Below are positions 1,961 through 63,752 of a stretch of 64,000 nt of DNA, piece after piece. Source of the stretch: Mytilus edulis (taxonomy: Eukaryota). The notes beneath the pieces were generated by a model. That model searched no databases, was not told the origin of the DNA, and saw only the letters and a program-made list of their open reading frames with translations. Within the stretch, counting starts at the first letter, position 1. Each line of letters starts with the position of its first letter. Both the position numbers and the translations under genes were made by a program. The stretch is taken from assembly GCF_963676685.1 (NCBI RefSeq), contig NC_092344.1, positions 49,352,001 to 49,416,000 on the forward strand, in the 5' to 3' direction.

Positions 1961-2873
1961 TGGGACAAATAGACACAGACTACAAAGTGCAATACCATTC
2001 TAAAATACATTAATGTATCTTCTTTTTTATAATTTTATAATAAAAAATTAAAAGATGTAGAGCTTTATTTCATCTTTTTTTCTGTAGAAACCAACGCAAC
2101 TTTAATACATGAAATGATGATTTTTTTTTATGATTTGCTGGAACAAAAAAGAACTTAAATGGACTATGGGAGTTTTTATAGCTGTCACAATAACAAAATG
2201 AGGTATTTTGTCAACTCGAAAACTACACCAACGAGATTATTAGGAAAAACTTAAATTATTTCGTTTCATGTAAATCAAAATCTAAAAAAGGAATATATTT
2301 TATATACTGAATACATTTGAAAAATGGATTTTGAGATAGTTAAACACAAATGTTAAAGCTATTTTATTGACAAGCTTCGAAATGCTATTGTTTTTATTGT
2401 TTTCAGTTGGTAGAAAACACTTGTGATCTTAAATATCCTTATGTCGTTTCAAGTTTTGAGGTTAAATGGTACCAATACATACAACAACTGGACAAATATC
2501 TTGTTAAAAAAAACCCATATAATTTGCACAAAGTAGAAAAGAATATTTAAAGAAATATTTATATTTAAACCATTATAGATTGGACTTTGAGACCATCATT
2601 TAACCTCAGTCATCTATCTTTCGCAATCTTCATACATGTATTGTGAAAAGTAAAATTACAAAAACAACGAATTCCAAAGGAAAAGTCTTTATAAAATATC
2701 AACATTTAAAGCTCAGACACATCTTAAGAATATAAAACAACTGTCATATTCTTTACTTGAAACTGACGTTTTCTTATGTAGCATATGGTGGCTCACACCT
2801 GGTTTTATTGGTGGTTTAATCTTCAACTTATGACGTATGAAAAAAGCATAGAATTCCAATATAATGACATGAT

Positions 2874-3182
2874 AGATATAGGAAGATGTGGTGTGAGTGC
2901 CAATGAGACAACTCTCAATCCAAATATAAAAGTTAACCATTATAGGTCGATGTACGGCCTTCAACACGAAGCCTTAGCTCACACCGAACAACAAGCTATG
3001 AAGGGCCCCAAAATTACTAGTGTAAAATCATTTAAACGGGAAAACTAACGGTCTAATCTATATAAAAAACGAGAAACGAGAAAAACGTACAAATTACATA
3101 AACAAACGACAACTACTGTACATCAGATTCCTGACTTAGGACAGGTGCAAACATTTGCAGCAGGATTAAACGTTTAAATGAA
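2874..3182 (-). mobile_element. Interspersed retroelement 3'-end fragment with truncated twister-like motif
   Basis: Nearly identical to 62711-63025. It ends inside the twister-like motif. Confidence 0.7.
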
Positions 3183-4790: not shown

Positions 4791-5443
4791 TCTAGATCAT
4801 TCTAATGTTCCCGTTGAACTTGGAGAAGATAACCGCTATTATCCGAATAAAAAGATAAAGTAGGTCAAAAACTTTAAAATTGTTTTATAACATTAAACAT
4901 TTCAGCATCGACGGAAAAGGAAGCTGTAAGGTATTTATCTTCTCATTTTAATTATTTTGGAAATTATTAAGGAAACTAGGTAAAAATAAAGCATCGTATA
5001 TATTTTTTAAATAAACTGAAATATACTGTATATCAAACATCCTTTTATTTAAATCAGTCGTTCTTCTCATTTTGATTTAAGTTTGCAAGCTTTAATTAGT
5101 TGAAAACTAAGCTATAAAATATTACAAAAATATATATGTACAATGATTTGTCAAATTTGACACTCCTGAAGGGCATGTATACATGTATAATCATTCGGCC
5201 CAAAATAAATAAATCAAAATTAAGATTAAATATTTGTATAATAAAATTGTGTGTGTGTTAATGACAGTGCTAGTGGGATAGGTATCACGAGCACAAGGGT
5301 CAGAACTTCTGTGTTGGCGCCATAATGAAGGGCCATAAAGTGTAACTCTAGTCCGTCCGTCCCGTACGTCCCAAAAATGTGTTCCGTTCTCCTAACTTTA
5401 GTTTGCCTCAACCAAATACTACAAAACTTATACACAATATAAA

Positions 5444-5780
5444 AAAGAAGATGTGACATGAGGGCCAATTAGAACTCTCTACAAGAGAACAAATGACACA
5501 GAAATTAACAACTATAGGTCACCGTACGGCCTTCAGGAATCAGCAAAGCCATAATGCATAGTCAGCTATAAAAGGCACCGAAATGACAACGCAAAACAAT
5601 TCACACGAGAAAACTAACGGCCTAATTTATGTACAAAAAATTAAGGAAAAACAAATATTTAACACATAAACAAACGACAACTACTGAATTACAGGCTCCT
5701 GACTTGGGACGGGCACATACATACAAAATAAGGCGGGGTTAAACATGTTAGCGCGATCCTCACTCTGCACCTAACCTTGG
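5444..5780 (-). mobile_element. Abundant interspersed repeat (retroelement 3' end) with degenerate twister-like motif
   Basis: Same family as about 7067-7330, 15369-15670, 20378-21600 (interrupted), 50940-51340 and 56476-56880. Shared words: gatgtgg..gccaatgagacaactctc, tataggtcaccgtacggccttc, cctgacttgggac.ggc, gcggggttaaacatg. Confidence 0.7.
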
Positions 5781-6685
5781 ACATTGTTTATTACCACAAA
5801 ATAAAATTTGAAATTTGGTAGCGTCACTTTTACCGTCCATGAGTTATCATGCCCCTTTATAAACATAGAAAATGCTGAATATTTTGTTTCCGTTCTCTTA
5901 AATACGTTTGCCTCAATCAAATGTTATAAACCTCATTTGCAATGCTTATTACCCCAGAACACAGATCTATCAAGTCCAACATTAGGTGGCATCACTTTTA
6001 CTGTTCATGAGTTATTAGATGTAAGAAGATGTGGTACGAGTACCATTGATATAAATATCAACACGGAACCTTTACATTTGTAGATAGGTAAAATGCTAAA
6101 TCTGTTGTTTTCGTTCTCTAACTTTATTTTGCCTCAACCAAATGTTATGAAACTTATACACATTGAAAACTCATTGTCACAAAACGGTCAAAACTACGTG
6201 AATCCTGCATCTATATGTGGAAGTTTTACAAGCGGGGGCATCTGTGGGCTATAAACATTTTCTACATTTATTTAAATAAACAGCTTTTTTAATTCCATTA
6301 AATTCTACTTCTAGTAGAAGTAGCTTGCATATTTGTTTCAGGATCTCGGTGCAGTTTGGTAACAGACAGTGATATTTCAAGTTACATGTGACCAGCATAA
6401 CTAAGTCTTTCACTAGATTTAGCTCTCTGTCAAAGTGTACTTTAAAGGTTCTTTGCGCTGAGTTCAGTTTATTGATATGCGTATATCTTCTGTGTGCTTT
6501 TTTAAGATGTAAAAACAGACTATCCATATCTACATGTCAACGAAATGAAATGTATGGTAAAATGATTGAAACATTTTGCATTATCTATCACAACTGGCAG
6601 CACATGGTACTACTGAAGCAATAAAGGTTCTCTCTAATTTTTCACGGAAATTTAAGGATTAAGTTTCGTTTGGACCTAACATTCT

Positions 6686-14640: not shown

Positions 14641-17600
14641 TAGTGCGGTGACTGAAGGCAGATTTTTTTTAATTTAATCTCCCCACCGAACACACACCTA
14701 TATAATATATCATTGGAAAGAGGAAATCGTGTACTATAATAATATGCCTGTCGTCAAGACTTGATATGGTCACATTTTTTTTAAATTGAGGTCAAAGGTC
14801 ATATGTAAAAATCTGTGAAAATTTGGGAGGGTTTCAATTTTGACATTTTTGTATATTTCTAAACTCTACCTAAATACAAATGATACTGTTTTGGCTTTAG
14901 TAATGTTTGTTATTATACATAAACCTTAATCATTGAGATTTTTTTATCAAAAAAAATCATAAAACGACGTTTTATAAACAAAACTTTAAAAATCAAGTTT
15001 TCAACCTATAAAATGTTTAGAGCACCTTAACCTTATGACAAATTTCAAATTCAGGTAAACATCAAGTGTCATGCAGGACAACACTTTAAAATTATTTTTT
15101 AAACCATCATATTGGGTGAGATATGAAACCAAAGCAATAGAACACTACAGTCAAATATGACCTCAAATTGAATTTGCGGATACTTTATTTTTTTTTAAAG
15201 ACTACTCGTTGCTTTTGGTTTTTTTCATAATTATTACTGCTTCCATAGTATTATCTGTTGTTGTGTATTTTACTCTGGTTAAAATCTATTACATTATAGG
15301 TTTTGTACCTATATATCCCCCCTTTTTTTCCTTGCAACGTACCACAAACTTCAAAAGTATTCCATATAAAAAAAAGAAGATGTGATATGATTGCAAATGA
15401 GACATAAATTAACTTACAATTATAGGTCCCGTACGGGCTTCAACAATGAGTAAAAAATTAAATTCATACTGCATAGTCTTCAATTCCCGAAACAAATAAT
15501 GTAAAACAAACGAAAAATCTAACGGCCCGATTAATGTACAAAATGAATAAAAAACAAATAGAAACAAACGACAAACACTGCATTACCATCTCGTGACTTG
15601 AAACTGACACATACAGAATGTGGCCGGGTTAAACTTTTTTAAGGGCGCACCAACACTCCCCAAACCTGGGTATACCAGTGCAACAAGCTTTATACCAAAT
15701 CAACCGTTATCTTCATCATCTTCATTTTCATCAACCGTCACAAGACATGTTTTAATATTTCTACTCATTTCACTCATGGCCACATGTCTGCACATGAAAG
15801 GTTCTGCTCACAGCAAACACGTTATTTTGAGTTTTTCTTTACAAGTATAGACAAGGTATTGTAGGAAGTCCGAAGACATTTGTTCCTAAAAAAAATACCA
15901 GCTTCAAACCATCCCTATCAATTCATCCAAGATTTAACAGAGATCTAAAAGGGGGTTTAGGAAGGTGTGATGACATCCATATGCGTGTCTGTAAAGATGC
16001 TGAGGAATCATTATACGAGATGAACACACTATCTTGAATTCGATCAATGTCATGGTTTGCAATACATCAGATAGTGTCGCACTTTACTTTAAGAAGCATA
16101 ACGTCCATTGGCATTCAATGTTTCAACAAGGTGTTTTGAACTAAACTCATGGTACATTTGTAAAGCCAATCCTAAATAAAAAAGAGTAAAACAAAATTGG
16201 CCACACACACGATTGACTTAACAATTTCTTAGCATTGACGCAGTTTCTCTGGTGCCATTTCCTGAGAATAGTCTTGGCTGTATGCAGTTTCATCGAGTAA
16301 CTATAAAATGAATTGCAATAAATACGAAGGCATTGACTGAATTGAAGAAGGAAGAGACAATTCATTCGAAGTTGGGTATTCTTCTTTAGAGTTTCGATGT
16401 CTTTTCTAAGTATACTTGCAGCGGAATGAAATATCTGTCCGTTATGTGTGTCTATTACCGTTGACATTAAGATTTTGAGGTCAGTTTTCAATTGCCTAGC
16501 AGCTGATATTGCATCTCAAATAGTTATTTTGCTACTATATATTATGTTATATTTGCCTTGAACTTGTTGTTTGACAACTGAATTTCAATAGAAATCAATA
16601 AGTTTAGACCGCATGTTAAAAGTAGAATATTTTAAATTAGAGTAGATCTGTATTTATCAAGTAACGGTGTCACGAGGAATGACCATTAAATCGTTGTCAA
16701 TAGCCAAAATAAAATTAGTAAAAGCAGTATCGTGATCTGAGATATCTGCTTCCACGGGTTTGGACTTTTTTGGGTCTTTTCTCGTTTTTAGCAAATGATT
16801 TGTAATGCAACCAAAATGACAGAGTGCTTGAAGTTTAAAAGATGGACGGAAAAACAATTTCAATTTTAACTTTGTCTGACACGGATAAAACATTCTTCAT
16901 ACGCTCATCTGATTCAAACTTGCGTAGTTTTTATGATATTTCTAAAATGTTTTGTTGCAACAAAATGTACAAGCGCTCCAGTTGAACGACTGCATTCTAG
17001 AACGCATACAAATACTCGAAACTGTGGGACAACAGTCCGATAATTGTATGTCGTCATTAAATATCAGATAAGAAGCTTCCTCGCTCTAAAAGGGGGCACA
17101 AATATGTTAACTTTTGTAACTTTTGTACCATGAACGATGGTAAACTGCCTGCACGGAGTTCTTCGAATTAACAGCTATCGCATGAAATCATAGGCACTTG
17201 TTTCTGTCAATATGGGGTTTGCTATCCATACCCGTACGGGTGATTTTTCGTACGGGTATGGATAGTAAACCCATATTGACAGAAACAAGTGCCTTTTCAT
17301 GAAACATGTTCACCTCATCCAATCTTTTATTCGATGCAGATACAAAAATCGACTTCCCTATATGGTTAAATTGACTCAAAATTTCAGTCGAGTTTTTTTT
17401 TTGCATATTAAGCACTGCATAAAATTGAACGACTTTATTCTTTTCTTTTAGACTTATTGGAGCAAGTTGCAACGGACTTCACATATCACGGAATATTTAC
17501 TGAAACTATCCGTCAATTATTTTGATTTTACAATAAGACTTTTCTGACAAAGTATATTTGATGTTTTGTAACAAAAAACATAGAATATAAACATATACAA

Positions 17601-18284: not shown

Positions 18285-19169
18285 CTACCGAATAAGACTA
18301 ACATGAGATACACGACGGGTGCCATATATTGAGCAGGATCTACTTCCCCTTTCGGAGCACCTGAAATCATCCCTAGTTTTTTGTGGGGTTTGTATTGATT
18401 ACTCTTTAGTTGTCTATGTTTTGTCATATGTACTATTGTTTGTCTGTTTGTCTTTTGCATTTTAAGCCATGGCGTTGTCATTTTATTATCGATTTATGAG
18501 TTTGACTGTCCCTTTGGTATTTTTTCCTCTCTTGTACATGTTGTATGATCATTACAGATAAAGTTTCTAAAGATAATTGATAGTTTTGAAATGAAAAAGA
18601 AAAAAATAATAATGAAATAACAAGAGTTAATGTTGCTGCCGAACTTTTGTAGTTTTGTGGTCTGTTGTGCGTACATGTTTTTTGCCCTAAACTTAAGATC
18701 GTAATTAAAGGAAATATAGGGCATAAGAACTATTTTCCTTATGTTCAGCTTGGCATTCAATATACTGTATGTTGATATCTTTCATAGAACGTTAAAGTTA
18801 TCCTCCAATGAAGTGATACAGAGCACTTTTTCCCGTCTTGTCAAAAATTTATGAAATGTATTTCACTATAATCAAGAGGGTATGAGATAATGTTCAAAAC
18901 CTAATAAATAGACGGATATAGGCTTTCTGAATGGATGTTAAATCGTTGATGTTAATCATTGTGGATCAGCAGTCATAAAAAACTTAATCCACCTTATACT
19001 TTTTTTCAAATCACGCTGTTATCGTTATTTCATTTCAATGACGCTGTTATCGACATTTCCTTTTAAATTACGTTTTTATCGACATTTCAATTATAGTTAT
19101 GTATCTTAAATGTATTCATTTTAGTAGAAAGACAAATCATTAACTGTTTTTTTCCTTCATTTCATAAGT

Positions 19170-19755
19170 ATAAATTATTCCAAATAATAAGGATGTTCTT
19201 CTCCCATGCAGAAAAACCTCAACCGTATTGGTCACAACTTTTTGGACCTTTTGGTCGTCAGTGCTCTTCCAACTTTGTTCTTGGTTTGACTTTCGAACTT
19301 TTTTCATCTGAGCGTCACCGGTTAGTCTTGTGTGGACGAAACGCATGTCTGGCATATTCAAATTAAACCTGGTACCTTTTGTTAGCTATTATTCGTGTGT
19401 TTCTCGGTCTTATATTTTCTCCCATTTATTTGTATTGTTATCCTGTCATGTAATGTTGTCATTTCAATGTTATATTTAACATTGTCATTTAGGCGGGAGG
19501 TTTGGCATGATACAAAACCAGGTTCAACCCACCATTTTTTTCTTAAAATGTCCTGTACCAAGTCAGGGAAATATCCATTGTTATATTATAGTTCGTTTCT
19601 GTGTGTGTTACATTTTAATCTTGTGTCTCTGTTGTGTCGTAGTTTTCCTCTTATATTTGATGTGTTTCCCTCAGTTTCAGTTTGTAACCCGAATTTTGTT
19701 TTCTCAATCGATTTATGAATTTCGAACAGTGGTATACTACTGTTGCCTTTATTTA
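19170..19755 (+). mobile_element. Retrozyme-like interspersed repeat with degenerate hammerhead (about 19310-19355) and twister-like motif (about 19478-19582)
   Basis: gagcgtcaccggttagtcttgtgtggacgaaacgcatgtctggc, followed by gcgg-GAGGT..aaccaggtt-CAA-ccc-ac-catttt..aaaatg-t-cctg-TACCAAGT-cagg. Boundaries are approximate. Confidence 0.55.
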
Positions 19756-21459: not shown

Positions 21460-21881
21460 TCAACAACTGACAATCACTGAATTGAATTACAAGCTCATGA
21501 TTTGGGACAGGCATATACATACATATGTGGCGGGGTTAAACATGATAGCGGGATCCAAACCCTCCCCAAACCTGGAACAGTGGTGTAACAGTACAACATA
21601 AGAACAAACTATAGAAAAGGTCATCAGATGGATACAAATAGAAATATTATAAAATAAAACGGTTACATACTTGATGCTGTCAAGTTTTGTGAATTTTTAG
21701 GATTGTGTCATAAAATGTGTAAAACTTGACAAAAAACACAGAAATGATCTCCGACTTCTTTTGATTAAATCAGATTCAGAATAGAATGATTTTTACCCAC
21801 ACCAATCGTTCATCTATTTAAAAAAAATCAAATCCAGAGAAGAATGATTTTTACGCAATCTTATGATTCATCTATCTTTAA

Positions 21882-25293: not shown

Positions 25294-26970
25294 GATAAGA
25301 CAACAGATGACATAATATATTGTGCAATATTTAAATGATAGTTATCCATGTATTGTGATATTTTATAATTTTGTTTTGATACACAAATAAAGTATTTATT
25401 ATAACAGAGTTTATTTTAATTTTTTGTCTTTGATTCACAGCTGCCTCTCACGCATGTTCAACAACAAAATCGGCAACAAACTCAGAAAGCTTCTAACAGA
25501 AATATAAGACACATCAGTAAAGCCTTCTATAATTCTAATCATTATGACTGAAAAAGAATTTCGCATGTGCACCAGAATATATAGCAAAGAACAAATTGCA
25601 ATATATTTCAATTAACAGAGTTATTATTAATCATATTTCTGTAATAAAATATCACTGCTATTGCTTAAAAGGTATTTCTTGGAATGAGAGTAAAAATGAA
25701 ATACAAAAACAAATCTTAACTCTAAAGAAATTAAAAACGAAAAGTCTCTTATCAAAACATCAAAATCAACAGCTCAAACAATTCAAACGAAAGAAAACAG
25801 CTGTCATTGAATAATAGATTGGACTTGAGTTGTTATAGATAGCTAGAACTCTGACATGTTTGGCAGTCGCACAAAATTACGTTATATTGACAATATTGTG
25901 TGAACAAAACAAACAGACATAAAGATAACCTTTATTATTAGAAAAAGAAACAAATAGCTCAATATCTCAATAAACAAAAATGGAATTGCATATAGAATAT
26001 ACTTAAAGGCAAAAATTGAAAGATTAAAAAGATTACTATAGCACAATATCACAGTGTGCCGAGCCAAAAAGATATAAACGACAATTGACTAAACAGTGAA
26101 GGTACATGTCTTAAAAAGATAAATAAACGAACACTATAAAACGTTGTTAAAAGTGAGACAAAAAATACTAAATGAACATTGAAACTAAAAATCGAAATTA
26201 ATCTGAAAAAGACATTTATAAAATACAAAAAGGACAAACAGACAAACACAATAGAAAACCAAAGACTGTGCAGCACGAGCGTTACCATCAGATGGGTAAT
26301 CTCAGGTGCTCCGGAAAGGTAAGCAGATCTTGCTCCACATGTGACACTTGTAAAGTTTCGCATGTTACTAGAAACCCGGTGATTTGGCTAGCTCGATAAA
26401 TTACATACCGAAAATAGTATCAGCAAAACGGCTACTATATTTTGTACATGGAATAAATGCAAAGTTTACATTTGGAGTTAAGTGTGACGTCTATTTCACT
26501 GAACAAGATCACAATTTTATTCAGAGGCAATATGAGCACCACTTCACTGTCGTCGCCTCAATACCATGTTTAATAAGGACATTGCTAAAATTAAACAAAA
26601 TATATATTTATTCGTTATTCAGATTGAGGCAATTTCTTTTAAAAAACCACTTATTATCTGGTGCAGAAAAATTGGTACCGTTAATGTTATTACTACCACT
26701 GGGTCGATGCCTCTGCTGGTGGACTGTTAGTCCCCGAGGGTATCACCAGCCCAGTAGCCAGTACTCCGGTACTGGCATGAAAATACGGATTTTTTGTGAT
26801 ATTAAATTTACTGTTACAAAATGTTAAAAAATATTATAAATTAAGAAATGTATTTCCCTCATGCAAAGCTCTAATTCCTTTCACGGATTTGGCTATACTT
26901 TTTTGGAACTTTTGGATTATAGCTCTACATATTAAATATAAGCTTTCGATTTTACATATTTTGGCCACGA

Positions 26971-28385: not shown

Positions 28386-29367
28386 TTTTAACGAGAGAAA
28401 TTTATGTATTACTGAAAAATTATTACACCAGGGTTTTCGATATCACAAACTAGTCAAAACATTTACTAAATTTTATCATCGGTATAAAGACATCATTCGT
28501 AAATATAGCTCAACATGCAGACTTCTAATACGTTCAGGTATTTCACATCCAATTTTTTATGAAAATATTCTTTATAAAGCACAAAGGTGTCAGTATTCAC
28601 CTCAGAAACTTACAAAACCTTTGAATAGACTTATTAAGAAGGGATATAATTACGATACTGTTGTCAAGTCATTAAAGATTGCATATTTTGGCGTTAATAT
28701 TGAGTCACTGATAAGGTCTTTGCATCGGAACTACACAAATTTATTCTAAAAACAGTTGTTGGCATGACACGGGTTATGTTCTTCTCATATATGTTATGAT
28801 GGTATGATACTAAACCCCTAACGGGAAGGATTGTGCCTGATGTTCATATGATGAAATCATAATCTTTCAGTCAGTTTAATTGAAGTCTGGAGCTGGCATG
28901 TCAGTTAACTGCTAGTAGTCTGTTGTTATTTATGTATTATTGTCATTTTGTTTATTTTCTTTGGTTACATCTTCTGACATCAGACTCGGACTTCTCTTGA
29001 ACTGAATTTCAATGTGCGTATTGTTATGCATTTACTTTTCTACATTGGTTAGAGGTATAGGGGGAGGGTTGAGATCTCACAAACATGTTTAACCCCGCCG
29101 CATTTTTGCGCCTGTCCCAAGTCAGGAGCCTCTGGCCTTTGTTAGTCTTGTATTATTTTAATTTTAGTTTCTTGTGTACAATTTGGAAATTAGTATGGCG
29201 TTCATTATCACTGGACTAGTATATATTTGTTTAGGGGCCAGCTGAAGGACGCCTCCAGGTGCGGGAATTTCTCGCTACATTGAAGACCTGTTGGTGACCC
29301 TCTGCTGTTTTTTATTTGGTCGGGTTGTTGTCTCTTTGACACATTCCCCATTTCCATTCTCAATTTT
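28386..29367 (+). mobile_element. Penelope-like family A 3' fragment nested in stem II of the fifth hammerhead
   Basis: gagac|ttttaacgagag...ctcaatttt|atcatttgtcgaaa. Open frame FNERNLCITEKLLHQGFRYHKLVKTF...NLF* ending at 28749. Homologous to 3595-4541. Confidence 0.85.
29047..29137 (+). ncRNA. Twister ribozyme-like RNA, type P5 permutation, atypical P1
   Basis: P5 ggttagaggt/gcctctggcc, P2 gggg/cccc, GAGGG, UAA (predicted U29090/A29091 cut), GC, P3 cgca/tgcg and P4 cctg/cagg with loop UCCCAAGU. Confidence 0.75.
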
Positions 29368-29481
29368 ATCATTTGTCGAAATGCGCATCTGGTGCAGAAA
29401 AATCGGCACCGTTAATGTTATTATTAGTTTTTTACCATATCAATGTATTATAATCACTACGCTGAGCTCTGTAGCATTTAA

Positions 29482-34489: not shown

Positions 34490-37400
34490 GATAAGACAAC
34501 AGATGACATAATATATTGTGCAATATTTAAATGATAGTTATCCATGTATTGTGATATTTTATAATTTTGTTTTGATACACAAATAAAGTATTTATTATAA
34601 CAGAGTTTATTTTAATTTTTTGTCTTTGATTCACAGCTGCCTCTCACGCATGTTCAACAACAAAATCGGCAACAAATCGTAACCTTAGAAAGCTTCTAAC
34701 AGAAATATAAGACACATCAGTCTATAATTCTAATCATTATGACTGAAAAAGAATTTCGCATGTGCACCAGAATATATAGCAAAGAACAAATTGCAATATA
34801 TTTCAATTAACAGAATTATTATTAATCATATTTCTGTAATAAAATATCCCTGCTATTGCTTAAAAGGTGTTTCTTGGAATGAGAATAAAAATAAGATACA
34901 AAAACAAATCTTAACTCTAAAGAAATTAAAAACGAAAAATCTCTTATCAAAACATCAAAATCAACAGCTCAAACAATTCAAACGAAAGAAAACAGCTGTC
35001 ATTGTCCTGACTTAGTACAGGAGATTCCTTCTGAAGAAAATAATAGATTGGACTTGAGTTGTTATAGATAGCTAGAACTCTGACATGTTTGGCAGTCGCA
35101 CAAAATTACGTTATATTGACATTATTGTGTGAACAAAACAAGCAGACATAAAAGATAACCTTTATGATTAGAAAAAGAAACAAATAGTTCAATATCTCAA
35201 TAAACCAAAATGAAATTGCATATAGAATATACTTAAAGGCAAAAATTGAAAGATAGAAAAAATGACTATAGCACAATATCACAGTGTGCCGAGCCAAAAA
35301 ACAGTCAAGGTACATGTCTTAGAAAGATAAGTAAACGAACACTATAAAACGTTGTTAAAAGTGAGACAAAAAATACTAAATGAACATTTAAACTAAAAAT
35401 CGAAATTAATCTGAAAAAGACATTTATAAAATACAAAAAGGACAAACAGACAAACACAATAGAAAACCAAAGACTGTTCAGCACGAGCGTTACCAACAGT
35501 TGGGTAATCTCAGGTGCTCCGGAAAGGTAAGCAGATCTTGCTCCACATGTGACACTTGTAAAGTTTTGCATGTTACTAGAAACCCGGTGATTTGGCTAGC
35601 TCGATAAATCACATACCGAAAATAGTATCAGCAAAACGGCTACTATATTTTGTACATGGAATAAATGCAAAGTTTACATTTTGGAGTTAAGTGTGACGTC
35701 TATTTCACTGAACAAGATCACAATTTTATTCAGAGGCCATATGAACACCACTTCACTGTCGTCGCCTCAATACCATGGTTAATAAGGACATTGCTAAAAT
35801 TAAAAAAAGTATATATATATTTATTCGTTATTCAGATTGAGGCAATTTCTTTTTAAAAACCCCGCTTATTAGTTGTTTACCATATCAATGTATTATAATC
35901 ACTACGCCGACCTCTGTAGCATTTAAGGGTAGTCGATTACTTTAGTGTATTTATTATTATACAATGAGTTTATGATAAAACGTTAACTCTATATTTTTCT
36001 CAAAATATCATTTATGGAAGAAAAGTTGTCTTCCTCCATCTTGGATTTTAAAATACCAGAAAACAATCGATCTTGATCTTTAAGTGAATAAGGTAATTCA
36101 TGTGTAGGAATTTTCATTGAAATAAAGAAAATGACATATTTTATCATTTTAATAATTGTATTTTACAAAAAAAACTTTTGTTCAATTATTTTTTTTCCAA
36201 CTTTGCCACATAAGGAAGGCAATTCAAATGTAAGGGCTGATAATTCAGATACAGTTACTTCTACAATAGAATGTGTAAGGAATTTACCTATTTCATTATG
36301 TAGCAAGAAAACGAGTCCTGTGACCTATTTTTTATTTTTCTTACCTTAAAGCATAATTTTAGAGATATCTTCTCATATTCTATCTAAAAATTTTATGGTT
36401 TAGTTTTCGTTTTATTGCAGACAATTTGGTTTTCCATGCATGATCTATTCAATATTTGTCAAATTTGCACAACCTGTAGCGCGAAAACGAGCCCCGTGAC
36501 CCATTCTTTTTATTTATGTTTTTAAAAAAGCATGATATAAACTACATTTTGGCAAAGTATTAAAACATTTTATGGATTATAATTTAGACACCCCCATCTA
36601 CCTTAAACTAGAAACTGTAATTAAAATGTGACGTTTAAACTTAACATGATTTAACACTTAACCTTAATAATAGTGGAAATTATCCGATAAACCTCTTAAA
36701 AATACCAATATTGAAAGACCGAAAATGAGGATAAAAAATATTATAAAGAAAGATGATGTTTGTTAACAAACATTATCTGTAATCCATTTCTTGCTGTATC
36801 TGGTAAAATGTATAGAAATTGTTCGTTCTCAATGCTCTTAACCTTTGTACTTTATTTGGCTTATCTATTTTTTTTTATTCGAGCGTCACTGATGAGTCTT
36901 TTGTAGACGAAACGCATTGGGCGCAAATACAAAATTTCTATCCTGGTATCTATGATGAGATAATTTGCATTATTCTCGTATTGTTTTTGATGTGTTTTGT
37001 CATTTGACTTTTGCCATGTTTAGGGACTTTCCGAATTGATCTTCCTCTGAGTTCAGTATTTTTGTGATTACTTTTTTGTATAACAGTGTAAGAAAGTATG
37101 AATTAATTTGATTTGCTTATCCAACCTCATAAAACGATATTACGGCATTTTCATTTGCTTTTCGTTAGGTCCAAGATACCTTTAAAATGTTAAGAATATG
37201 TATTTTTGTTAATGGCAACTGCATGAACAGATATATGTGATTTCTTCAAAAATATACAAAACACTCACACCTTTTACCTGACAATCTTCTTTCTATCAAT
37301 GTTTGTTACATTCTGAAGCGTACAAAAAGTCTTTAAATGTCTGATGTTAAAGTTTTAAAACACGAAAAGGACATATTATGTCATACTAGATGCAAATAAA

Positions 37401-39259: not shown

Positions 39260-39920
39260 TCAACAACTGACAATCACTGAATTGAATTACAAGCTCATGA
39301 TTTGGGACAGGCATATACATACATATGTGGCGGGGTTAAACATGATAGCGGGATTCAAACCCTCCCCAAACCTGGAACAGTGGTGTAACAGTACAACATA
39401 AGAACAAACTATAAAAAAGGTCATCAGATGGATACAAATAGAAATATTGTAAAATTCAAATTCAGAGAAGAATGATTTTTACGCAAACTTATGATCAACA
39501 ACTGACAATCACTGAATTGAATTACAAGCTCATGATTTGGGACAGGCATATACATACATGCATTGATATATTGATATATAAACGGTTATTTTTTACAATA
39601 TCACGTGATTACATAACTTTGAAATCATGTTGGATTTCGCAAAATTTCAGACATTTTTTATATCTAAAAATTACATTTATAACTTTTGTTTTACTTCATT
39701 AATACATACTTGATCCTGTCAAGTTTTGTGAATTTTTAGGATAGTGTCATAAAATGTGTAAAACTTGAAAAAAAACACAGAAATTATCTCCGACTTCGTT
39801 TAATTAGATCAAATTCAGAATAGAATGATTTTTACCCACACCAATGGTTCATCTATTTTAAAAAAATCAAATTCAGAGAAGAATGATTTTTACGCAATCT
39901 TATGGTTCATCTATCTTTAA

Positions 39921-43293: not shown

Positions 43294-44855
43294 GATAAGA
43301 CAACAGATGACATAATATATTGTGCAATATTTAAATGATAGTTATCCATGTATTGTGATATTTTATAATTTTGTTTTGATACACAAATAAAGTATTTATT
43401 ATAACAGAGTTTATTTTAATTTTTTGTCTTTGATTCACAGCTGCCTCTCACGCATGTTCAACAACAAAATCGGCAACAAATCGTAACCTTAGAAAGCTTC
43501 TAACAGCAATATAAGACACATCAGTAAAGCCTTCTATAATTCTAATCATTATGACTGAAAAAGAATTTCGCATGTGCACCAGAATATATAGCAAAGAACA
43601 AATTGCAATATATTTCAATTAACAGAATTATTAATAATCATATTTCTGTAATAAAATATCACTGCTATTGCTTAAAAGGTGTTTCTTGGAATGAGAGTAA
43701 AAATAAAATACAAAAACAAATCATAACTCTAAGGAAATTAAAAAAGAAAAGTCTCTTATCAAAACATCAAAATCAACAGCTCAAACAATTCAAACGAAAG
43801 AAAACAGCTGTCATTGTCCTGACTTAGTACAGGAGATTCCTTCTGAAGAAAATAAGAGATTGGACTTGAGTTGTTATAGATAGCTAGAACTCTGACATGT
43901 TTGGCAGTCGCACAAAATTACGTTATATTGACAATATTGTGTGAACAAAACAAGCAGACATAAAAGATAACCTTTATTATATCAGAATAATTGATCACTT
44001 TAGGGTAAAAACATGAAACTTGACATAGTGAAAGATTAAGGGGTATAGACAAAATTCAGATATGGAGCCACGAAAAAAAAATCCAATATGGCCGCCAAAT
44101 TCAAGATGGCCGACATAAGTATAACATCATTCATTTGATGAAGACTTCCAATTTAATGAGTTCAGACGATGTCACAAACTTAATGAAATACAAATAAGAT
44201 ATGTCAGTTAATTTTTTTGTAAACCTTATAATAAAGAAATCATCAAAATGGCGTCCAAATTCAAAATGGCGCGTCAAAATGTCTAAGTTTGACAATATTC
44301 GTATGTGTACACCATCATTGTGTGATAGAAAGTTACCAAATCCGTGAAACTGATCATGTGATATAAATAAAGGCCTACAGTGTATCAACAATACATAGGT
44401 GCATAAATAATATTTCCATATTGGCGGCAATATTCAAAATGGCGTCGTTTATCATGTCAAAATTTTACGTTTCTTTTTAAATATGGTATAAAAATGATTA
44501 AAAAATAATGAATCATTTTTTTCAATACAAGCACGTATATATACAAACATATTATTATGTAATGTAACAAGTGACATTAGCTATGAAATAAAAATGGTCG
44601 ATTCAACTCAAAATGGCGTCTTTGACGAGTTTTTTTCCCACAGTTACAGGTAATAACCTTAGAAAATTTAACAATTTTCCTGAAATGAAAAAAAATCAAC
44701 ATATGCAGTATTTCATTCTACAAAGAGAATTTATTTTTTAGAAATGAGGTAAGAAATTAAAAAAAGTCCCAAGTAGCTATTTGACATAAACATAGATTAA
44801 AATTATAATGACAATATGATCAAAATGCAGGAAAATCAAAATAAAGCACAGTGAC

Positions 44856-48360: not shown

Positions 48361-51300
48361 GTGCAAAGTTTCATGCTTTTACCACAAAGTGATCAATTGT
48401 CCCAAAATATTGGACTTAGCTGCTGGACTAGGCAAAAATTGAAAGATAGAAAAAATGACTATAGCACAATATCACAGTGTGCCGAGCCAAAAAGATATAA
48501 ACGACAATTGACTAAACAGTCAAGGTACATGTCTTAGAAAGATAAATAAACGAACACTATAAAACGTTGTTAAAAGTGAGACAAAAAATATTAAATGAAC
48601 ATTCAAACTAAAAATCGAAATGAATCTGAAAAAGACATTTATAAAATACAAAAAGGACAAACAGACAAACACAATAGAAAACCAAAGACTGTGCAGCACG
48701 AGCGTTACCAACAGTTGGGTAATCTCAGGTGCTCCGGAAAGGTAAGCAGATCTTGCTCCACATGTGACACTTGTAAAGTTTCGCATGTTACTAGAAACCC
48801 GGTGATTTGGCTAGCTCGATAAATCACATACCGAAAATAGTATCAGCAAAACGGCTACTATATTTTGTACATGGAATAAATGCAAAGTTTACATTTTGGA
48901 GTTAAGTGTGACGTCTATTTCACTGAACAAGATCACAATTTTATTCAGAGGCCATATGAGCACCACTTCACTGTCGTCGCCTCAATACCATGGTTAATAA
49001 GGACATTGCTAAAATTAAAAAAAAGTATATATATATTTATTCGTTATTCAGATTGAGGCAATTTCTTTTTAAAAAACCACTTATTAGTTGTTTACCATAT
49101 CAATGTATTATAATCACTACGCTGAGCTCTGTAGCATTTAAGGGTAGTCGATTACTTTAGTGTATTTATTATTATACAATGAGTTTATGATAGAACGTTA
49201 ACACTATATTTTTCTCAAAATATCATTTATTGAAGAAAGGTTGTCTTCGTCCATCTTAGATTTTAAAATACCAGAAAACAATCGATCTCGATCTTTAAGT
49301 GAATAAGGTAATTTATATGTAGGAATTTTCTTTGAAATAAAGAAAATGACACATTTTATCATTTTAATAATTGTATTTTACAAAAAAAAACTTTTGTTCA
49401 ATTATTTTTTTCCAACTTTGCCACATAAGGAAGGCAACTCAAATGTAAGGGCTGATAATTCAGACAAAGTTACTTCTACAATAGAATGTGTTAGGAATTT
49501 ACCTATTTCATTATGTAGCAAGAAAACGAGTTCTGTGACCTATTTTTTCTTTTTTTTTACCTGAAAGCATAATGTTAGAGATATCTTCTCATATTCTATT
49601 CAAAAATTGTATGGTGTAGTTTTCGTTTTATGGCAGAAAATTTGGTTTTCCATGCATGATCTATTCAAAATTTGTGAAATTTGCACAACCTGTAGCACGA
49701 AAACAAGCCACGTGACCCATTCTTTTTATTTATGTTTTTAAAAAAGCATGATATAAACTACATTTTGGCAAAGTATTAAAACATTTTATGGATTATAATT
49801 TAGACACCCCCCATCTACCTTAAACTAGAAACCGTAATTAAAATGTAACGTTTAAACTTAACATGATTTAACACTTAACCTTAATAATAGTGGAAATTAT
49901 GCGATAAACCTCTTAAAAATACCAACACTGAAAGACCGAAAATGAGGATAAAAAATATTATAAAGAAAGATGATGTTTGTTAACAAACATTATCTGTAAT
50001 CCATTTCTTGCTGTATTTGGTAAAATGTATAGAAATTGTTCGTTCTCAATGCTCGTAAGCTTTGTACTCTAAAAAAAATTATTCGAACGTCACTGATGAG
50101 TCTTTTGTAGACGAAATGCGCATTGGGCGGAAATACAAAATTTCTATCCTGGTATCTATGATGAGATAGTTTGCATTAATCTCGTATTGTTTTTGATGTG
50201 TTTTGCCATTGACTTTTGCCATGTTTAGGGACTTTCCGAATAGATCTTCCTCTGAGATCAGTATTTTTGTGATTTTACTTTTTTGTATAACAGTGTAAGA
50301 AAGTATGAATTAATTTGATTTGCTTATCCAACCTCATAAGACGATATTACGGCATTTTCATTTGCTTTTCGTTAGGTCCAAGATACATTTTAAAATGTTA
50401 AGAAGATGTAGTTTTGTTAATGGCAACTGCATGAACAGGTATATGTGATTTTCTCAAAAATATACAAAACACTCACACTTTTTACCTGACAATCTTCTTT
50501 CTATCAATGTTTGTTACATTCTGAAGCGTACAAAAAGCCTTTAAATGTCTGATGTTAAAGTTTTACACAGGAAAAGGACATATTATGTCATACTAGAATC
50601 TGCAAATAAATAGATCAACAATTCGCGAAATTTTAAATTTAATCAAATGATAGTGTTGACCATTGAGAAATAGGTTAAACAACTTGAAATAAATGGATAT
50701 CGCTTTGTCTCACTCTCATCAAGTATTTTAATGGTAATAATAAACTCGCCGAAGGCTTGTTAATTGTCCTTTTGAAATTCGATAAATAACTCAAATTGAC
50801 GCCAAGCGATTATCCATTCTCACTGGTTATGAAAGCTATAATTACAGCATTCTTTAAATAACAGCTATGGTTTTGATTTTAAAGATGCTCTTATTTCCCT
50901 CTCAAAATTTGTATCTATTCCTTTAAAGTACTTAACATAAAAAAGAACATGTGGTGTGTTTGCCAATTGAGACAACTCTCCACAAGAAACCAAATGACGC
51001 AGACTTTAACGACTATAGGTCACCGTACGGTCTTCAACAATGAGCAAAGCGCTTACTACATAGTCAGTTATAAATCGCCCTGAAATGACAAATTAATGTA
51101 AAACAATTCAAACGAGGAAACTTACGGCCTAATGTTTGTAAAAGATAGGAATGAAAAACAAATATTTAACTCATCAACAACTGACAATCACTGAATTGAA
51201 TTACAAGCTCATGATTTGGGACAGGCATATACATACAGATGTGACGGGGTTACACATGTTAGCGGGACCCAAACCCTCCCCAAACCTGGAACAGTCCCTC

Positions 51301-52057
51301 CCCAAACCTGGAACATTGGTGTAACAGTACAACATAAAAACAAACTATAAAAAGGTCATCAGATGGATACAAATAGAAATATTATTAAATAAAACGGATA
51401 TTTTTTACCATATCATATGGGATTTTGTAAAATTTCAGACATGTTTATATCTAAAAGTTACATTCATAACTTTTGTTTTACTTCATTAATACATACTGAT
51501 TAAAAACTGAAACTGTTTTGAGGGTTTTGAATGCTATCTGCTCTTAGTCGACGTCTGCAATCCCCAGTAAAAGTATGCGTTATCTGCTCTTTGGTTGGGT
51601 TGTTGTCTCCTTGAAAATTTCCCAATGTCCATCCTCGATTTTACTTATTAGCTAAGAGGAATGCTTTGAATGACAAATTGAAGTTACGAAGTTTAAGTTG
51701 AATATACCAGTGATTTTCAGATAAATAAGGTTCTTCGGTTTCTATAAATTGTATTTAAAAGTTATTTAATCTAATTAAACCCCATCAAATATAGATTAAC
51801 CTTTGCAATATATTTTTTTTCAATTTAAAAGACCTCTCTTAAATGAATATTTAACAATATAAAAAATGCAGAAAAAATAAACAAACGGCACTTCAACATT
51901 TTTTTAATTTCAACAACATTTTCTGACCAAACCGATATGTCTTAAAATATTTTTTGGTTGTGGTTAGGCCATACGGGAGACTGAGGTTAAATTTTTAACA
52001 GATAAATTCAATGTAAGTGTGACATTTAGAACTTGATTAATGAACATATTTACAAGT

Positions 52058-54434: not shown

Positions 54435-57400
54435 GATAAGACAACAGATGACATAATATATTGTGCAATATTTAAATGATAGTTATCCATGTATTGTGAT
54501 ATTTTATAATTTTGTTTTGATACACAAATAAAGTATTTATTATAACAGAGTTTATTTTAATTTTTTGTCTTTGATTCACAGCTGCCTCTCACGCATGTTC
54601 AACAACAAAATTGGCAACAAATCGTAACCTTAGAAAGCTTCTAACAGAAATATAAGACACATCAGTAAAGCCTTCTATAATTCTAATCATTATGACTGAA
54701 AAAGAATTTCGCATGTGCACCAGAATATATAGCAAAGAACAAATTGCAATATATTTCAATTATCAGAATTATTGTTAATCATATTTCTGTAATAAAATAT
54801 CAGTGCTATTGCTTAAATGGTGTTTCTTGGAATGAGAGTAAAAATAAAATACAATTTTCACTGAAATAAAGAAAATGACATATTTTATCATTTTAATAAT
54901 TGTATTTTACAAAAAAAACTTTTGTTCAATTATTTTTTTTCCAACTTTGCCACATAAGGAAGGCAACTCAAATGTAAGGGCTGCGATAATTCAGATAAAG
55001 TTACTTCTACAATAGAATGTGTTAAGAATTTACCTATTTCTTTATGTAGCAAGAAAACGAGTCCTGTGACCTATTTTTTCTTTTTCTTACCTGACATCAT
55101 AATGTTAGAGATATCTTCTCATATTCTATCTAAAAATTTTATGGTGTAGTTTTCGTTTTATGGCAGAAAATTTGGTTTTCCATGCATGATCTATTCAAAA
55201 TTTGTCAAATTTGCACAACCTGTAGCACGAAAACAAGCCCCGTGACCCATTCGTTTTATTTATGTTTTTAAAAAAGCATGATATAAACTACATTTTGGCA
55301 AAGTATTAAAACATTTTATGGATTATAATTTAGACACCCCCATCTACCTTAAACTAGAAACTGTAATTAAAATGTAACGTTTAAACTTAACATGATTTAA
55401 CACTTAACCTTAATAATAGTGGAAATTATTCGATAAACCTCTTAAAAATACCAACACTGAAAGACCGAAAATGAGGATAAAAAATATTATAAAGAAAGAT
55501 GATGTTTGTTAACAAACATTATCTGTAATCCATTTCTTGCTGTATTTGGTAAAATGTATAGAAATTGTTCGTTCTCAATGCTCTTAATCTTTGTACTTTA
55601 TTTGGCTTATCTAAAAAAAATTATTCGAGTGTCACTGATGAGTCTTTTGTAGACGAAATGCGCATTGGGCGGAAATACAAAATTTCTATCCTAGTATCTA
55701 TGATGAGATTATTTGCATTAATCTCGTGTTGTTTTTGATGTGTTTTGTCATTTGACTTTTGCCATGTTTAGGGACTTTCCGAATTGATCTTCCCCTGAGT
55801 TCAGTATTTTTGTGATTTTACTTTTTTGTATAACAGTGTAAGAAAGTATGAATTAATTTGATTTGCTTATCCAACCTCATAAGACGATATTACGGCATTT
55901 TCATTTGCTTTTCGTTAGGTCCAAGATACCTTTAAAATGTTAAGAAGATGTATTTTTGTTAACGGCAACTGCATGAACAGATATATGTGATTTCTGCAAA
56001 AATATACAAAACACTCACATCTTTTACCTGACAATCTTCTTTCTATCAATGTTTGTTACATTCTGAAGCGTACAAAAAGTCTTTTAAATGTCTGATGTTA
56101 AAGTTTTACACAGGAAAAGGACATATTATGTCATACTAGAATCTGCAAATAAATAGATCAACAATTCGCGAAATTTTAAATTTAATCAAATGATAGTGTT
56201 GACCATTGAGAAATAGGTTAAACAACTTGAAATAAATTGATATCGCTTTGTCTCACTCTCATCAAGTATTCTAATGGTAATAATAAACTCTCCGAAGGCT
56301 TGTTAATTGTCCTTTTGAAATTTGATAACTCAAATTGACGCCAAGCGATTATCCATTCTCACTGGTTATAAAACCTATTATTACAGCATTCTTTAAATAA
56401 CAGCTATGGTTTTGATTTTAAAGATGCTCTTATTTGCCTCTCAAAATTTGTATCTATTCCTTTAAAGTACTAAACATAAAAAGAACATGTGGTGTGTTTG
56501 CCAATTGAGACACTCTCCACAAGAAACCAAATTACGCAGACTTTAACGACTATAGGTCACCGTACGGTCTTCAACAATTAACAAAGCGCATACTACATAG
56601 TCAGTTATAAATCGCCCTGAAATGACAAATTAATGTAAAACAATTCAAACGAGGAAACATACGGCCTAATGTTTGTAAAAGATAGGAACGAAAAACAAAT
56701 ATTTAACTCATCAACAACTGACAATCACTGAATTGAATTACAAGCTCATGATTTGGGACAGGCATATACATACAGATGTGGCGGGGTTAAACATGTTAGC
56801 GGGATCTAAACCTTCCCGAAACCTGGAACAGTCTCTCCCCAAACCTGGAACAGTGGTGTAACAGTACAACATAAAAACAAACTATAAAAAAGGTCATCAG
56901 ATGGATACAAATAGAAATATTATAAAATAAAACGGTTATTTTTTACCATATCACGTGATTACATAACTTTGAAATCATGTGGGATTTTGTAAAATTTCAG
57001 ACATGTTTATATCTAAAAATTACATTCATAACTTTTGTTTTACTTCATTAATACATACTGATTAAAAACTGAAACTGTTATGAAGGTTTTGAATGCTATC
57101 TGCTCTTGGTCGACGTCTACAATCTCCAGTAAAAGCATGCGTTATCTGCTCTTTGGTTGGGTTGTTGTCTCTTTGACATTTTCCCAATGTCAATCCTCAA
57201 TTTTGCTTATTAGCTAAGAGGAATGCTTTGAATGACAAACTGAAGTTACGAAGTTTAAGTTGAATATACCAGTGATTTTCAGATAAATAAGGTTCTTCGG
57301 TTTCTATAAATTGTATTCAAAAGTTATTTAATCTAATTACACCCCATCAAATATAGATGCTGTCAAGTTTTGTGAATTTTTAGGATTGTGTAATAAAATG

Positions 57401-60884: not shown

Positions 60885-61729
60885 GATAAGACAACAGATG
60901 ACATAATATATTGTGCAATATTTAAATGATAGTTATCCATTGATCGTGATATTTTATAATTTTGTTTTGATACACAAATAAAGTATTTATTATAACAAAG
61001 TTTATTTTAATTTTGGTCTTAGAATTACAGCTGCCTCTAATGCATGTTAAAAAACAAAATCAGCAACAAATCGTAACATTAGAAACTTCTAACTGAAATA
61101 TAAGACACATCAGTAAAGCATTCTATAATTTTAATAATTATGACGGAAAAGAATTTCGCATGTGCAACAGAAGATATAGCAAATTACAAATTGCACTGCA
61201 TTTCAATCAAAAGAATTATTATTAATCGTTCTTCTCTAATGAAATATTACTACTATTGCATCAAAAAGTGTTTCCTTTTTGGAAATCTAGAGTCATGGAT
61301 TGAAAATTAAAAAGGGAAATAACAAAAATCTGAACTCCAAGGATGTTCAAAACATTTCCTTCTGTGAGAAAACAAATATATTGAACTTGTTTTTTTAAGC
61401 TAGCTAAAACTGTCACATGTTTGACAGTCGCATAAAATTCCATTATATTGTCAATAATGTGTGAACAGACATAAAATATAAACATATCGAAGGGATTCTG
61501 TTATGTTCGTTATCATTATTAAAAACAAATGTGTCAAAGAAAAACCAAATGGCACATAGGCAAAGCTTATATTTAGTAAAAATGAAAGATAGAATAGATT
61601 TTTAGAATGGCTGTAACAAAATAACGCAATAGAAAGTTGTACCATGGCATGCCAAAATGATATACAGGAAAATAAACTAAATAGTAAAGGTGAATGATTT
61701 AGATAGACAAAAAAAAAACATTATTGAAA

Positions 61730-62215: not shown

Positions 62216-62710
62216 GGTTAAGTTTTGACGTCAAGTCTTTTCTCAGATACTTCATAAGTCAGCTATAATTTCTAACATCCACTTCATTCTAACGATGATG
62301 GATAGTTTTGTAGTTGTCTCATTGGCAATCATACGACATCTTATTATTTTTATATATTTGGTGAATGAAATGATTGTAAATAAAGGCAACAGTAGTATAC
62401 CGCTGTTCAAAACTCGTAAATCTATGGACAAAAAACAAAATAGGGGGAAAAAACCAAAACTGAGGGAAACGCATTAAATAAGTAAGTTCTTCATGTCCCA
62501 CTGTCAAGTTTTGTCTAACCTTGACCTCTTATTCATAGATCAATGAACAATTTGTTTGGTTTCTCCTTTTTTAAGATGCTATACTGCCACTTTGTTTTGT
62601 ATATTGAAAGATTGTTAGGCAGTTAAGTGTACATCTTACAAGGTACATATAATCTTGGTCTCATTTCTATGGACCACTGATATTGTTATTTTGATGTGAT
62701 ACATGTATTA

Positions 62711-63120
62711 GATATAGGAAGATGTGGTGTGAGTGCCAATGAGACAACTCTCCATCCAAATAACAATTTAAAAATTAAACCATTATAGGTTAAAGTACGG
62801 CCTTCAACACGGAGCCTTGGCTCACACCGAACAACAAGCTATAAAGGGCCCCAAAATTACTAGCGTAAAACCATTCAAACGGGAAAACTAACGGTCTAAT
62901 CTATATAAACAAAACGAGAAACGAGAAACACGTATATATAACATAAACAAACGACAACTACTGTACATCAGATTCCTGACTTAGGACAGGTGCAAACATT
63001 TGCAGCGGGATTAAACGTTTTAATGGATCCAAACCTTCTCCCTTTTTCTGAAACAATAGCATAACATCACAACATAGAAAAACATACGATAAAATATCAA
63101 TTGGCAGACTTAACTCAATT
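62711..63120 (-). mobile_element. Interspersed retroelement 3'-end fragment
   Basis: Same family as 2874-3182, but longer and containing a complete twister-like motif. Confidence 0.7.
62968..63051 (-). ncRNA. Twister ribozyme-like RNA, type P5 permutation
   Basis: The minus strand reads tcaga-aaaa-ggga-GAAGG-tt-tggatcca-tta-aaacgtt-TAA-tccc-GC-tgcaaa-tg-tttgca-cctg-TCCTAAGT-cagg-aa-tctga. Confidence 0.75.
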
Positions 63121-63126
63121 AAACCA

Positions 63127-63417
63127 TTTTATTGTATAGCAATATAATATTTCCAACAGAAAGTAACCAAAAGTTAGCGTGCAATAAATTCCAATATTGC
63201 ACTAGCGCAATAAATTTTCAAAATTAATGACGTCATCAACGTCAAAATCTTAGTTTAAACCAATTTTTACTTTCAAATATTATATTGCTATACAATAAAA
63301 CTGTTATTGCATGAATATTGGGGAATATTGTCCCGCGTAGAACATATATTGCACTCGCAAGCTCGTGCAATATAAAATTCTACTCGGGACAATATTCCCC
63401 AATATTCATGCAATAAC
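63127..63417. mobile_element. Unclassified double inverted-repeat element
   Basis: IR ttttattgtatagcaatataatattt / aaatattatattgctatacaataaaa (63127-63300), directly followed by a long hairpin at 63303-63417. Confidence 0.7.
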
Positions 63418-63752
63418 CCTATAATATTACATATTTTCAACATATATTCAGTCTTAAGTAAAACAGGCGAGACATTTAAGCTGATTTCACTCTCGTGTTA
63501 TTTTAATAGATAAAAGTTTATAGAAGATCTTCCATTTGAGTCATTTGCGATAAGACTTATTTTCATGTGTGATTCGTTTGAAATTCACATTAAATCTCGA
63601 TACACATTAATTACATGAAAAAGTTCATATGAATCTACATTCAAAGTTTTCATAAATCCACAAGAAGAACGAAAAAAGCTCAAATTCGAACTTACTGTTT
63701 TGAGTTAAATATACCAATGCTCATATTAACGATTTCTTGTTTAATGTGATTG

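Follow-up and report, generated by a model that had tools for sequence, protein, structure and literature searches.

A fold with the element order and the intact catalytic bases of a type-P5 twister was read from the minus strand at 63051-62968 of the window, that is, the whole 64,000-nucleotide stretch of Mytilus edulis DNA that was analyzed. It lies in a truncated copy of a Naiad-type element of family F1, and copies of families F2 to F4 are found elsewhere in the window (Table 1). The blocks of the fold follow one another as P5, P2 partner, GA, T1 partner, a 20-nt segment, U^AA, P2, GC, P3, P4, and P5, the same order as in the natural twisters tabulated in the available part of PMC8501958. 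On this strand, P2 is formed by 63042-63039 with 63010-63007, T1 by 63036-63034 with 62985-62983 (AGG/CCU), T2 by 63006-63005 with 62980-62979 (G-U and C-G), P3 by 63004-62991, and P4 by 62990-62987 with 62978-62975, with the GA dinucleotide at 63038-63037. Other structured elements in the window are a near-perfect 75-nt hairpin formed by a long inverted repeat (17206-17280), a MITE-like element with a long inverted repeat directly upstream of the F1 copy (approximately 63120-63420), and a weak Hammerhead_3 match (36880-36918, plus strand; 24.2 bits, E 0.99) that is perhaps a retrozyme remnant.

Table 1. Parts of the twister-type fold and copies of the repeat families in the window
Feature	Position	Strand	Basis
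5'-truncated solo copy (~415 nt), 3' UTR/pseudo-LTR of Naiad family F1	62709..63123	-	90% identity over 435 columns to 3' end of the full tandem unit of L090
Type-P5-order twister fold	62968..63051	-	68-nt core is the commonest F1 form
P5 5' strand (pairs with 62972-62968)	63047..63051	-	sequence and MFE fold
P2 partner strand GGGA, GA (predicted general-base G63038), T1 partner strand AGG	63034..63042	-	aligned to Rfam Twister-P5
Palindrome X (TGGATCCA; in a sister subfamily, TGGTACCA)	63024..63031	-	sequence
Palindrome Y (AACGTT), ending at -2, where the P1 5' strand would end	63014..63019	-	sequence
U^AA, predicted cut between 63013 and 63012; A+1 predicted general acid	63011..63013	-	homology with twister
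P2 5' strand UCCC, T2 dinucleotide GC, P3 hairpin	62991..63010	-	fold and pair count
P4 hairpin; loop bears U, T1 (CCU), AA, T2 (GU)	62975..62990	-	Rfam alignment, exact-match count, pair count
F2 Naiad 3' UTR copy; SECIS-like hairpin 28786-28850, twister fold 29047-29137	28386..29368	+	91% identity to UTR of RT-bearing L087
F1 copy, starts ~10 nt upstream of cut site, without 5' half of fold	2873..3180	-	sequence comparison
F3 copy, fold decayed	5437..5786	-	sequence comparison
F3 copy, heavily decayed	15395..15670	-	sequence comparison
F3-type copy, T2 and P4 broken; near-identical to 39262-39417	21462..21617	-	sequence comparison
F3-type copy, T2 and P4 broken	39262..39417	-	sequence comparison
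F3-type copy, decayed	50937..51353	-	sequence comparison
F3-type copy, decayed	56479..56890	-	sequence comparison
F4 copy (T1 ACC/GGU, T2 AC/GU), absent from the list of the earlier note	19160..19646	+	descriptor and comparison
Further F4 pieces	25817-25925, 34898-35155, 43705-43967, 61380-61467	-	descriptor and comparison

The twister-type fold and its covariation

The best Rfam match of the 151-nt stretch around the fold was to Twister-P5 (RF02684) at 62975-63042, spanning all 58 model positions with 21.8 bits (E 0.0079), a score below the RF02684 gathering score of 37.6; the Rfam scan of the whole 64-kb window returned no twister match. RNAfold recovers P5, P2, P3, and P4 at 63051-62968 (-21.4 kcal/mol), and since 13 of 200 shuffles were equally stable (z -1.87), folding stability alone is not significant.

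The termini of the molecule lie in P5, which is the arrangement of type P5, and P2 and P4, the latter closed by the invariant G-C, are paired in 97% and 100% of the cells, respectively, among nine representatives. T1 comprises three Watson-Crick pairs (CCU/AGG), with both adenines of the adjoining A-A pair present, and the L2 dinucleotide supplies the two pairs of T2 (GC/GU), one of them a G-U wobble of the kind that twisters tolerate (PMC11662667). The catalytic A+1, A+2, and general-base G are present as A63012, A63011, and G63038; in twisters, mutating any of these lowers or abolishes cleavage (PMC11662667). Cleavage between U63013 and A63012 of the minus strand, the site also given in the earlier note, is predicted by homology and is quite probable. 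An intramolecular P1 beside the cut site was not found, the segment having an MFE of 0.0 and bearing two palindromes instead. P1 was held essential in the original definition of the twister and later proved dispensable (PMC5408937), and twisters can cut without it (PMC5408937; PMC11662667). Because the intramolecular P1 and the Rfam cut-off both fail, we class the fold as a variant of the type-P5 twister. With Twister-P5 (RF02684, clan CL00120) it shares the order, P2, P3, P4, T1, T2, U^AA, GA, and the L4 bases; it differs in the two palindromes that replace P1, in its score under the threshold, in that cleavage here is a prediction, and in that T2 in families of the M. edulis genome has G-U or A-U instead of G-C.

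Direct comparison with the fold at 29047-29137 revealed double changes in T1 (A-U to G-C), P2 (A-U to G-C), and P3 (U-A to C-G), and the P5 sequences of the two folds differ with pairing kept. The alignment of the F1 copy (62709-63123) with the F2 UTR is confined to the fold (69 to 71 columns, 77 to 79%). For the pair count, 9 of 14 representatives were used, the families with a 3-bp P2 being left out because MAFFT misaligned them. Pairing was found in 96.7% of 153 cells, with 4 of 17 pairs altered on both sides, a pair count that alone is not a probability because the rows are related and three of them come from a pattern fixing some paired positions; one row (M6) is also one column out of register. 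In this set, one T1 pair was altered on both sides, slid-alignment controls paired in 27.5 to 47.1% of cells against the 96.7% of the real alignment, and none of 500 shuffles reached the covariation score. An earlier note on this DNA had proposed that the fold has the same architecture as 29047-29137 with compensatory substitutions in T1, P2, P3, and P5, as well as palindromic segments at the P1 position; the comparison and the pair count bear out the former, and both palindromes were found, at 63031-63024 and 63019-63014.

Copy counts in genome G000 are exact-pattern matches. The 16-mer of the P4 hairpin, common to all families, matched 42,688 times, and its reversed control 0 times. A descriptor without a palindrome requirement gave 92 matches in 1.26 Mb, a set made up mostly of motif-selected loci, and 0 in the reversed sequence. 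The form of the descriptor restricted to Watson-Crick pairs in T2 missed F1 to F3, after which G-U was allowed, and a loose descriptor was discarded (133 matches versus 56 in the control).

The Naiad-type host element

Four family groups of the genome (F1 to F4) carry the fold, that of F4 with a P2 of only 3 bp with a bulge. The seven degenerate relatives listed in the earlier note all exist; only that at 3123-3180 is of the same family as 62968-63051, the other six being of a third family, and T2 and P4 are broken in four of them (21490, 39290, 51203, and 56741).

Exact copies of a 41-nt stretch of the motif number 1,015 in G000, and those of a 23-nt stretch 2,786, with none in the reversed controls. 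Among 30 copies, the 3' end is fixed, homology stopping approximately 334 nt after the start of the 41-mer in 29 (the remaining copy has an internal duplication); the end of the element lies approximately 300 nt past the predicted cut site. Their 5' ends are ragged, from 39 to more than 1,500 nt upstream, and the longest extend into an RT open reading frame (ORF). Tandem units of 4,444 and 4,457 bp were found at two loci. The ORF of 1,001 amino acids has a GIY-YIG-like N terminus, CxC, DKA, RT, and five in-frame UGA codons at cysteine positions, one of which is the first cysteine of the CxC. It is followed after the stop by a SECIS-like hairpin (28.4 bits against a cut-off of 35 in a scan of L090:6350-7500). 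Pfam support is weak (GIY-YIG, E 0.3; RVT_1, E 0.014), and the GIY-YIG motif was read from the translation.

These features are those by which Naiads are recognized: GIY-YIG N-terminal to RT in one ORF, CxC, DKA replacing DKG, a body of 3.4 to 4.4 kb with tandem units and 5' truncation, and no hammerhead, none being matched at E up to 5 in the Rfam scan of L090:6350-7500. With the Naiads described in the available part of Craig et al. (2021, PMC8557442), the element shares the GIY-YIG-like domain, CxC, DKA, RT, a length of approximately 4.4 kb, and tandem units, as well as UGA at cysteine positions, a SECIS-like hairpin, and a UTR without a hammerhead match. On these motifs and this layout, rather than on an RT tree, the repeat is assigned as the 5'-truncated 3' UTR of an autonomous Naiad-type Penelope-like element. 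Its longest copies and the tandem units with an RT ORF mean that the "SINE-like repeats" of the earlier note are truncated tails of autonomous elements. That the repeats are twister-bearing retroelement ends and among the commonest of the genome holds, given the number of P4 matches and the RT ORF upstream. The SINE designation was rejected, since the repeat has no fixed 5' head of its own and its ragged 5' ends lead into the RT ORF.

Association of the fold with the RT is not confined to loci chosen by motif. At 18 loci picked by RT similarity alone (72 to 82% identity), the fold lies 382 to 446 nt after the ORF in 17, comprising 3 of 3 loci of the 29047 family (F2) and 14 of 15 of the third family (F3). 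RT was also found upstream of the fold in F4 and metagenome loci (L363 and, from the metagenomes, L229, L261, and L280).

The selenoprotein Naiads in the available part of PMC8557442 are those of clams and spiders, and its mussel families are not marked as such, in contrast to the M. edulis element with its five UGA codons. Young full-length ORFs with five in-frame UGA codons were found at L089:1262-4270 (minus orientation) and L090:3388-6399, and from their sequence these likely encode a selenoprotein retroelement in a mussel-like genome. Two SECIS_1 matches just below the cut-off of 35, at 28786-28850 (32.3 bits in the window scan) and 4161-4225 (plus strand), sit in F2 3' UTR copies, and SECIS-like hairpins are scattered through the genome by the many truncated copies.

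Two further kinds of copy were recorded. At L383:1197-1775, a 207-bp unit occurs 2.8 times in tandem, the copies being 99% alike and each containing the entire F4a fold, either a local duplication or a short retrozyme-like array. A recurrent F1 variant (L117, L133, L138, L145, L160, and L179) that has lost both the 5' half of the fold and the cut site through an internal deletion seems to have spread without the ribozyme.

Naiads were reported to lack canonical hammerheads, and the available text and supplement of PMC8557442 contain the word "twister" 0 times and name no other ribozyme. When the last ~400 nt of 53 of its 54 consensus sequences (File S5) were surveyed by eye, the fold was found in eight (Mley, Chem-4, Movir-1, Mgal, Bpla, Mphi, Scon, and Mmer), from the ctenophore Mnemiopsis, the cnidarians Clytia (family 4) and Morbakka (family 1), three mussels, and two clams; the other 45 ends, over the same length, were without it. 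In these eight, all three positions of T1 vary (CGA/UCG, CAC/GUG, ACC/GGU, and UCC/GGU, the last with a U-U mismatch in three consensus sequences), T2 occurs as GC/GC, AC/GU, or CC/GG, and P4 has five forms. GA, the AA after the cut, GU, and the loop AA are invariant; position -1 is U, C, or G. Both palindromes are present in all eight, with Y ending at -2. Because these sequences were defined by their proteins and not by the fold, they are the least circular evidence, albeit read by eye and not computed. Family F4a matches the motif of the published Naiad_Mgal consensus, which points to a mytilid mussel as the likely host.

A metagenome scan returned at least 119 matches in what is apparently animal DNA, including several more families, part of this set having been picked with a pattern that fixes several paired positions; viral contigs gave no match to the motif. 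One of these matches (L242:1225-1290) is a conventional type-P1 twister that has a normal P1 and lacks palindromes. In the literature searched, to which most subscription journals did not belong, no paper joins twisters with Naiads or other Penelope-like elements or describes a palindromic dimer twister.

A second two-palindrome fold, with an outer stem and a hairpin-loop pseudoknot, was observed at approximately 63985-63885, near 20838, and near 38638 (all minus strand) and at L008:2285-2405. It had 31 distinct matches in the fetched DNA and 0 in the reversed control, found no ribozyme match in Rfam, and, by eye, ends 11 of the 53 published Naiads (oysters, ark shell, pearl oyster, hemichordates, and two Clytia families), none of them with a twister; it is a candidate for an undescribed ribozyme. 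In the nematode Naiads Nbra-2, Nbra-3, Hcon, Hpol, and Asuum of File S5, the halves of a hammerhead core were seen by eye far apart, with the strand to be cleaved in Hcon seemingly placed within stem II, like the noncircular permutations in the available part of PMC10085705.

Palindromes in the position of P1

In all families, X begins 1 to 2 nt after T1 and Y ends at -2, which are the positions of the two P1 strands. Of 14 representatives, 10 have two palindromes of at least 3 bp, where shuffles would give 1.1; the remaining four are single copies bearing point changes. Two candidates, a decayed F4b copy and an M1 copy flanked by foreign sequence, had been excluded beforehand. The center of X in F1, read by eye in the first 100 of 1,896 matches, is AT in 51, TA in 44, and another pair in 5. 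In F4, 71 of the first 100 of 4,499 matches carry one of four different perfect palindromes, likewise by eye and with three rows from one tandem locus.

Folding predictions give the P1-position segment -13.2 kcal/mol when self-paired, against 0.0 kcal/mol alone. In cofolding, a domain-swapped dimer joined via X lies 11.6 kcal/mol below two monomers, and an active-compatible dimer lies below two monomers in 11 of the 14 representatives. In this model, which is without pseudoknots, the active-compatible fold of F1 is penalized in the dimer (8.8 kcal/mol) and the monomer (5.2 kcal/mol) alike, so the model shows no dimer-specific activation. Since the central bases of a palindrome would be unpaired in a hairpin, and since the observed pattern is not one that a cruciform or a protein site would favor, pairing between two RNA copies via the palindromes is the simplest reading.

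Predicted cleavage, pairing, and alternatives

Genomic copies had been expected in the earlier note to be 5' truncated preferentially at the cut site, which their ends contradict. From 451 F1 copies without the upstream GGG, 70 were examined, of which 50 were truncated and the other 20 carried internal deletions or indels. The 5' ends of the truncated copies fell at +2 to -2 in 3, at +3 to +10 in 9, at +11 to +20 in 26, and at -3 to -27 in 12. Three of 50 is approximately what an even spread predicts, and the cut site is therefore not a preferred 5' end. The 26 copies that start in P3 (+11 to +20) are approximately 2.5 times the even spread, in a zone that adjoins the search anchor.

Approximately 6% of one RNA run was read. 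These reads cover the element and show a strand bias over its 5' UTR, consistent with sense transcription provided that the library was made by the usual stranded protocol. In the portion read, there was no pile-up of read ends on F1 or F4a, which a fragmented library need not show, and reads run across the predicted cut site, most of them from decayed copies. The listed holders of the motif sequence include no RNA record. For PAc, a lizard Penelope-like element, the available part of PMC11167929 reports a hammerhead that cut only with protein and was unneeded for insertion in vitro, no reads ending at the hammerhead cut, and reverse transcription that began internally. Internal initiation as in PAc would explain the fixed 3' end together with the missing 5' signature, but would not account for the purpose of the cut.

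We regard as probable that the twister-type fold in the Naiad 3' UTR cuts itself at 63013/63012, likely upon pairing of two copies, and that cleavage depends on this pairing. A tandem element would be transcribed with two twister folds approximately 4.4 kb apart. X would pair with its twin X, producing a domain-swapped dimer whose folds are completed across copies, the 5' half from one joining the 3' half from the other; Y may also pair, or may pair instead, in the role of P1. With cleavage at both folds, a unit-length RNA would be set free. On its own, a copy would be poorly active, so that host transcripts bearing the tens of thousands of truncated copies would be spared.

As twisters can cut without P1, the monomer may itself be catalytic, with the palindromes pairing two RNA copies for a different purpose, such as keeping both ends of the tandem transcript together or loading the RT. 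P1 was dispensable in the twisters tested (PMC5408937; PMC11662667), a single copy has every catalytic base and can form both pseudoknots, and the folding model offers no relief specific to the dimer. Nevertheless, we consider an active monomer rather unlikely, given that the palindromes occupy exactly the two P1 strand positions in all families and that tens of thousands of active solo copies would cut host RNAs, in which reads cross the site (mostly from decayed copies). Less probable still is a twister descendant that is now mainly structural or protein binding and cuts weakly or only with the protein of the element. The protein-dependent, dispensable hammerhead of PAc (PMC11167929) is a precedent for it, as are the Penelope hammerheads that cut poorly in vitro according to the available part of PMC4209133, and the end signature is missing from both DNA (50 truncated copies) and RNA (one run); however, A+1, A+2, and the general-base G have stayed constant from ctenophore to bivalve while the neighboring stems vary.

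That the pairing and palindromes are devoid of RNA function, reflecting inheritance within a copied repeat or symmetry at the DNA level, would agree with the nonsignificant folding energy, with the nonindependence of copies within families, and with the selection of part of the metagenome set on paired positions. It is largely refuted by covariation, as two-sided changes occur in every helix and both pseudoknots among families defined by protein. The fold is also strand specific and at a fixed position after the ORF, the reversed controls are empty, and the palindrome sequences differ freely, which argues against a shared protein site; we consider this explanation highly improbable.

Pairing-dependent cleavage in tandem transcripts is thus the reading we prefer. 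More tentatively, the twister may be an obligate dimer in which family-specific palindromes serve as an address code, Naiads may have swapped ribozyme classes repeatedly rather than losing their ribozyme, and the second fold may be a ribozyme on the same dimer principle. If so, cutting would be limited to tandem transcripts of the element's own family, and solo copies, more than 40,000 in number, would be silent in host RNAs.

Palindromic, dimer-type hammerheads are known in Penelope-like elements (Cervera and de la Pena 2014, PMC4209133). According to the available part of that study, they occupy the same element position (the pseudo-LTR), have a palindrome replacing a weak helix, and are present in two copies per tandem transcript; the Naiad fold differs in its ribozyme class and in having two palindromes of 6 to 12 nt rather than one short palindromic loop. 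The T-variant twisters of Perere-3 in Schistosoma mansoni (Liu et al. 2021, PMC8501958) are also tied to a retrotransposon and tolerate a weak P1. As far as described in the available part, these are of type P1 and lie at the 5' end of the element, defining the end beside the target duplication, in contrast to the Naiad fold, which is of type P5 and lies in the 3' UTR approximately 300 nt from a fixed 3' end, with the 5' ends of copies off the cut.

Naiads are the dominant Penelope-like elements of bivalves (PMC8557442). In the available part of that paper, the missing hammerheads are a notable difference of Naiads, and it is raised that hammerheads may merely parasitize Penelope-like elements. 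A probable ribozyme of another class in that position, again equipped with palindromes, speaks instead for selection of a self-cutting, pairing RNA there. The copy at 62709-63123 is an ordinary truncated insertion, and its value is that its core matches the commonest form of the family. A natural dimer-dependent twister with exchangeable palindromes, of which the literature searched has no example, would serve as a switch, and with an RNA of 90 nt, the role of the ribozyme in Penelope-like elements becomes testable.
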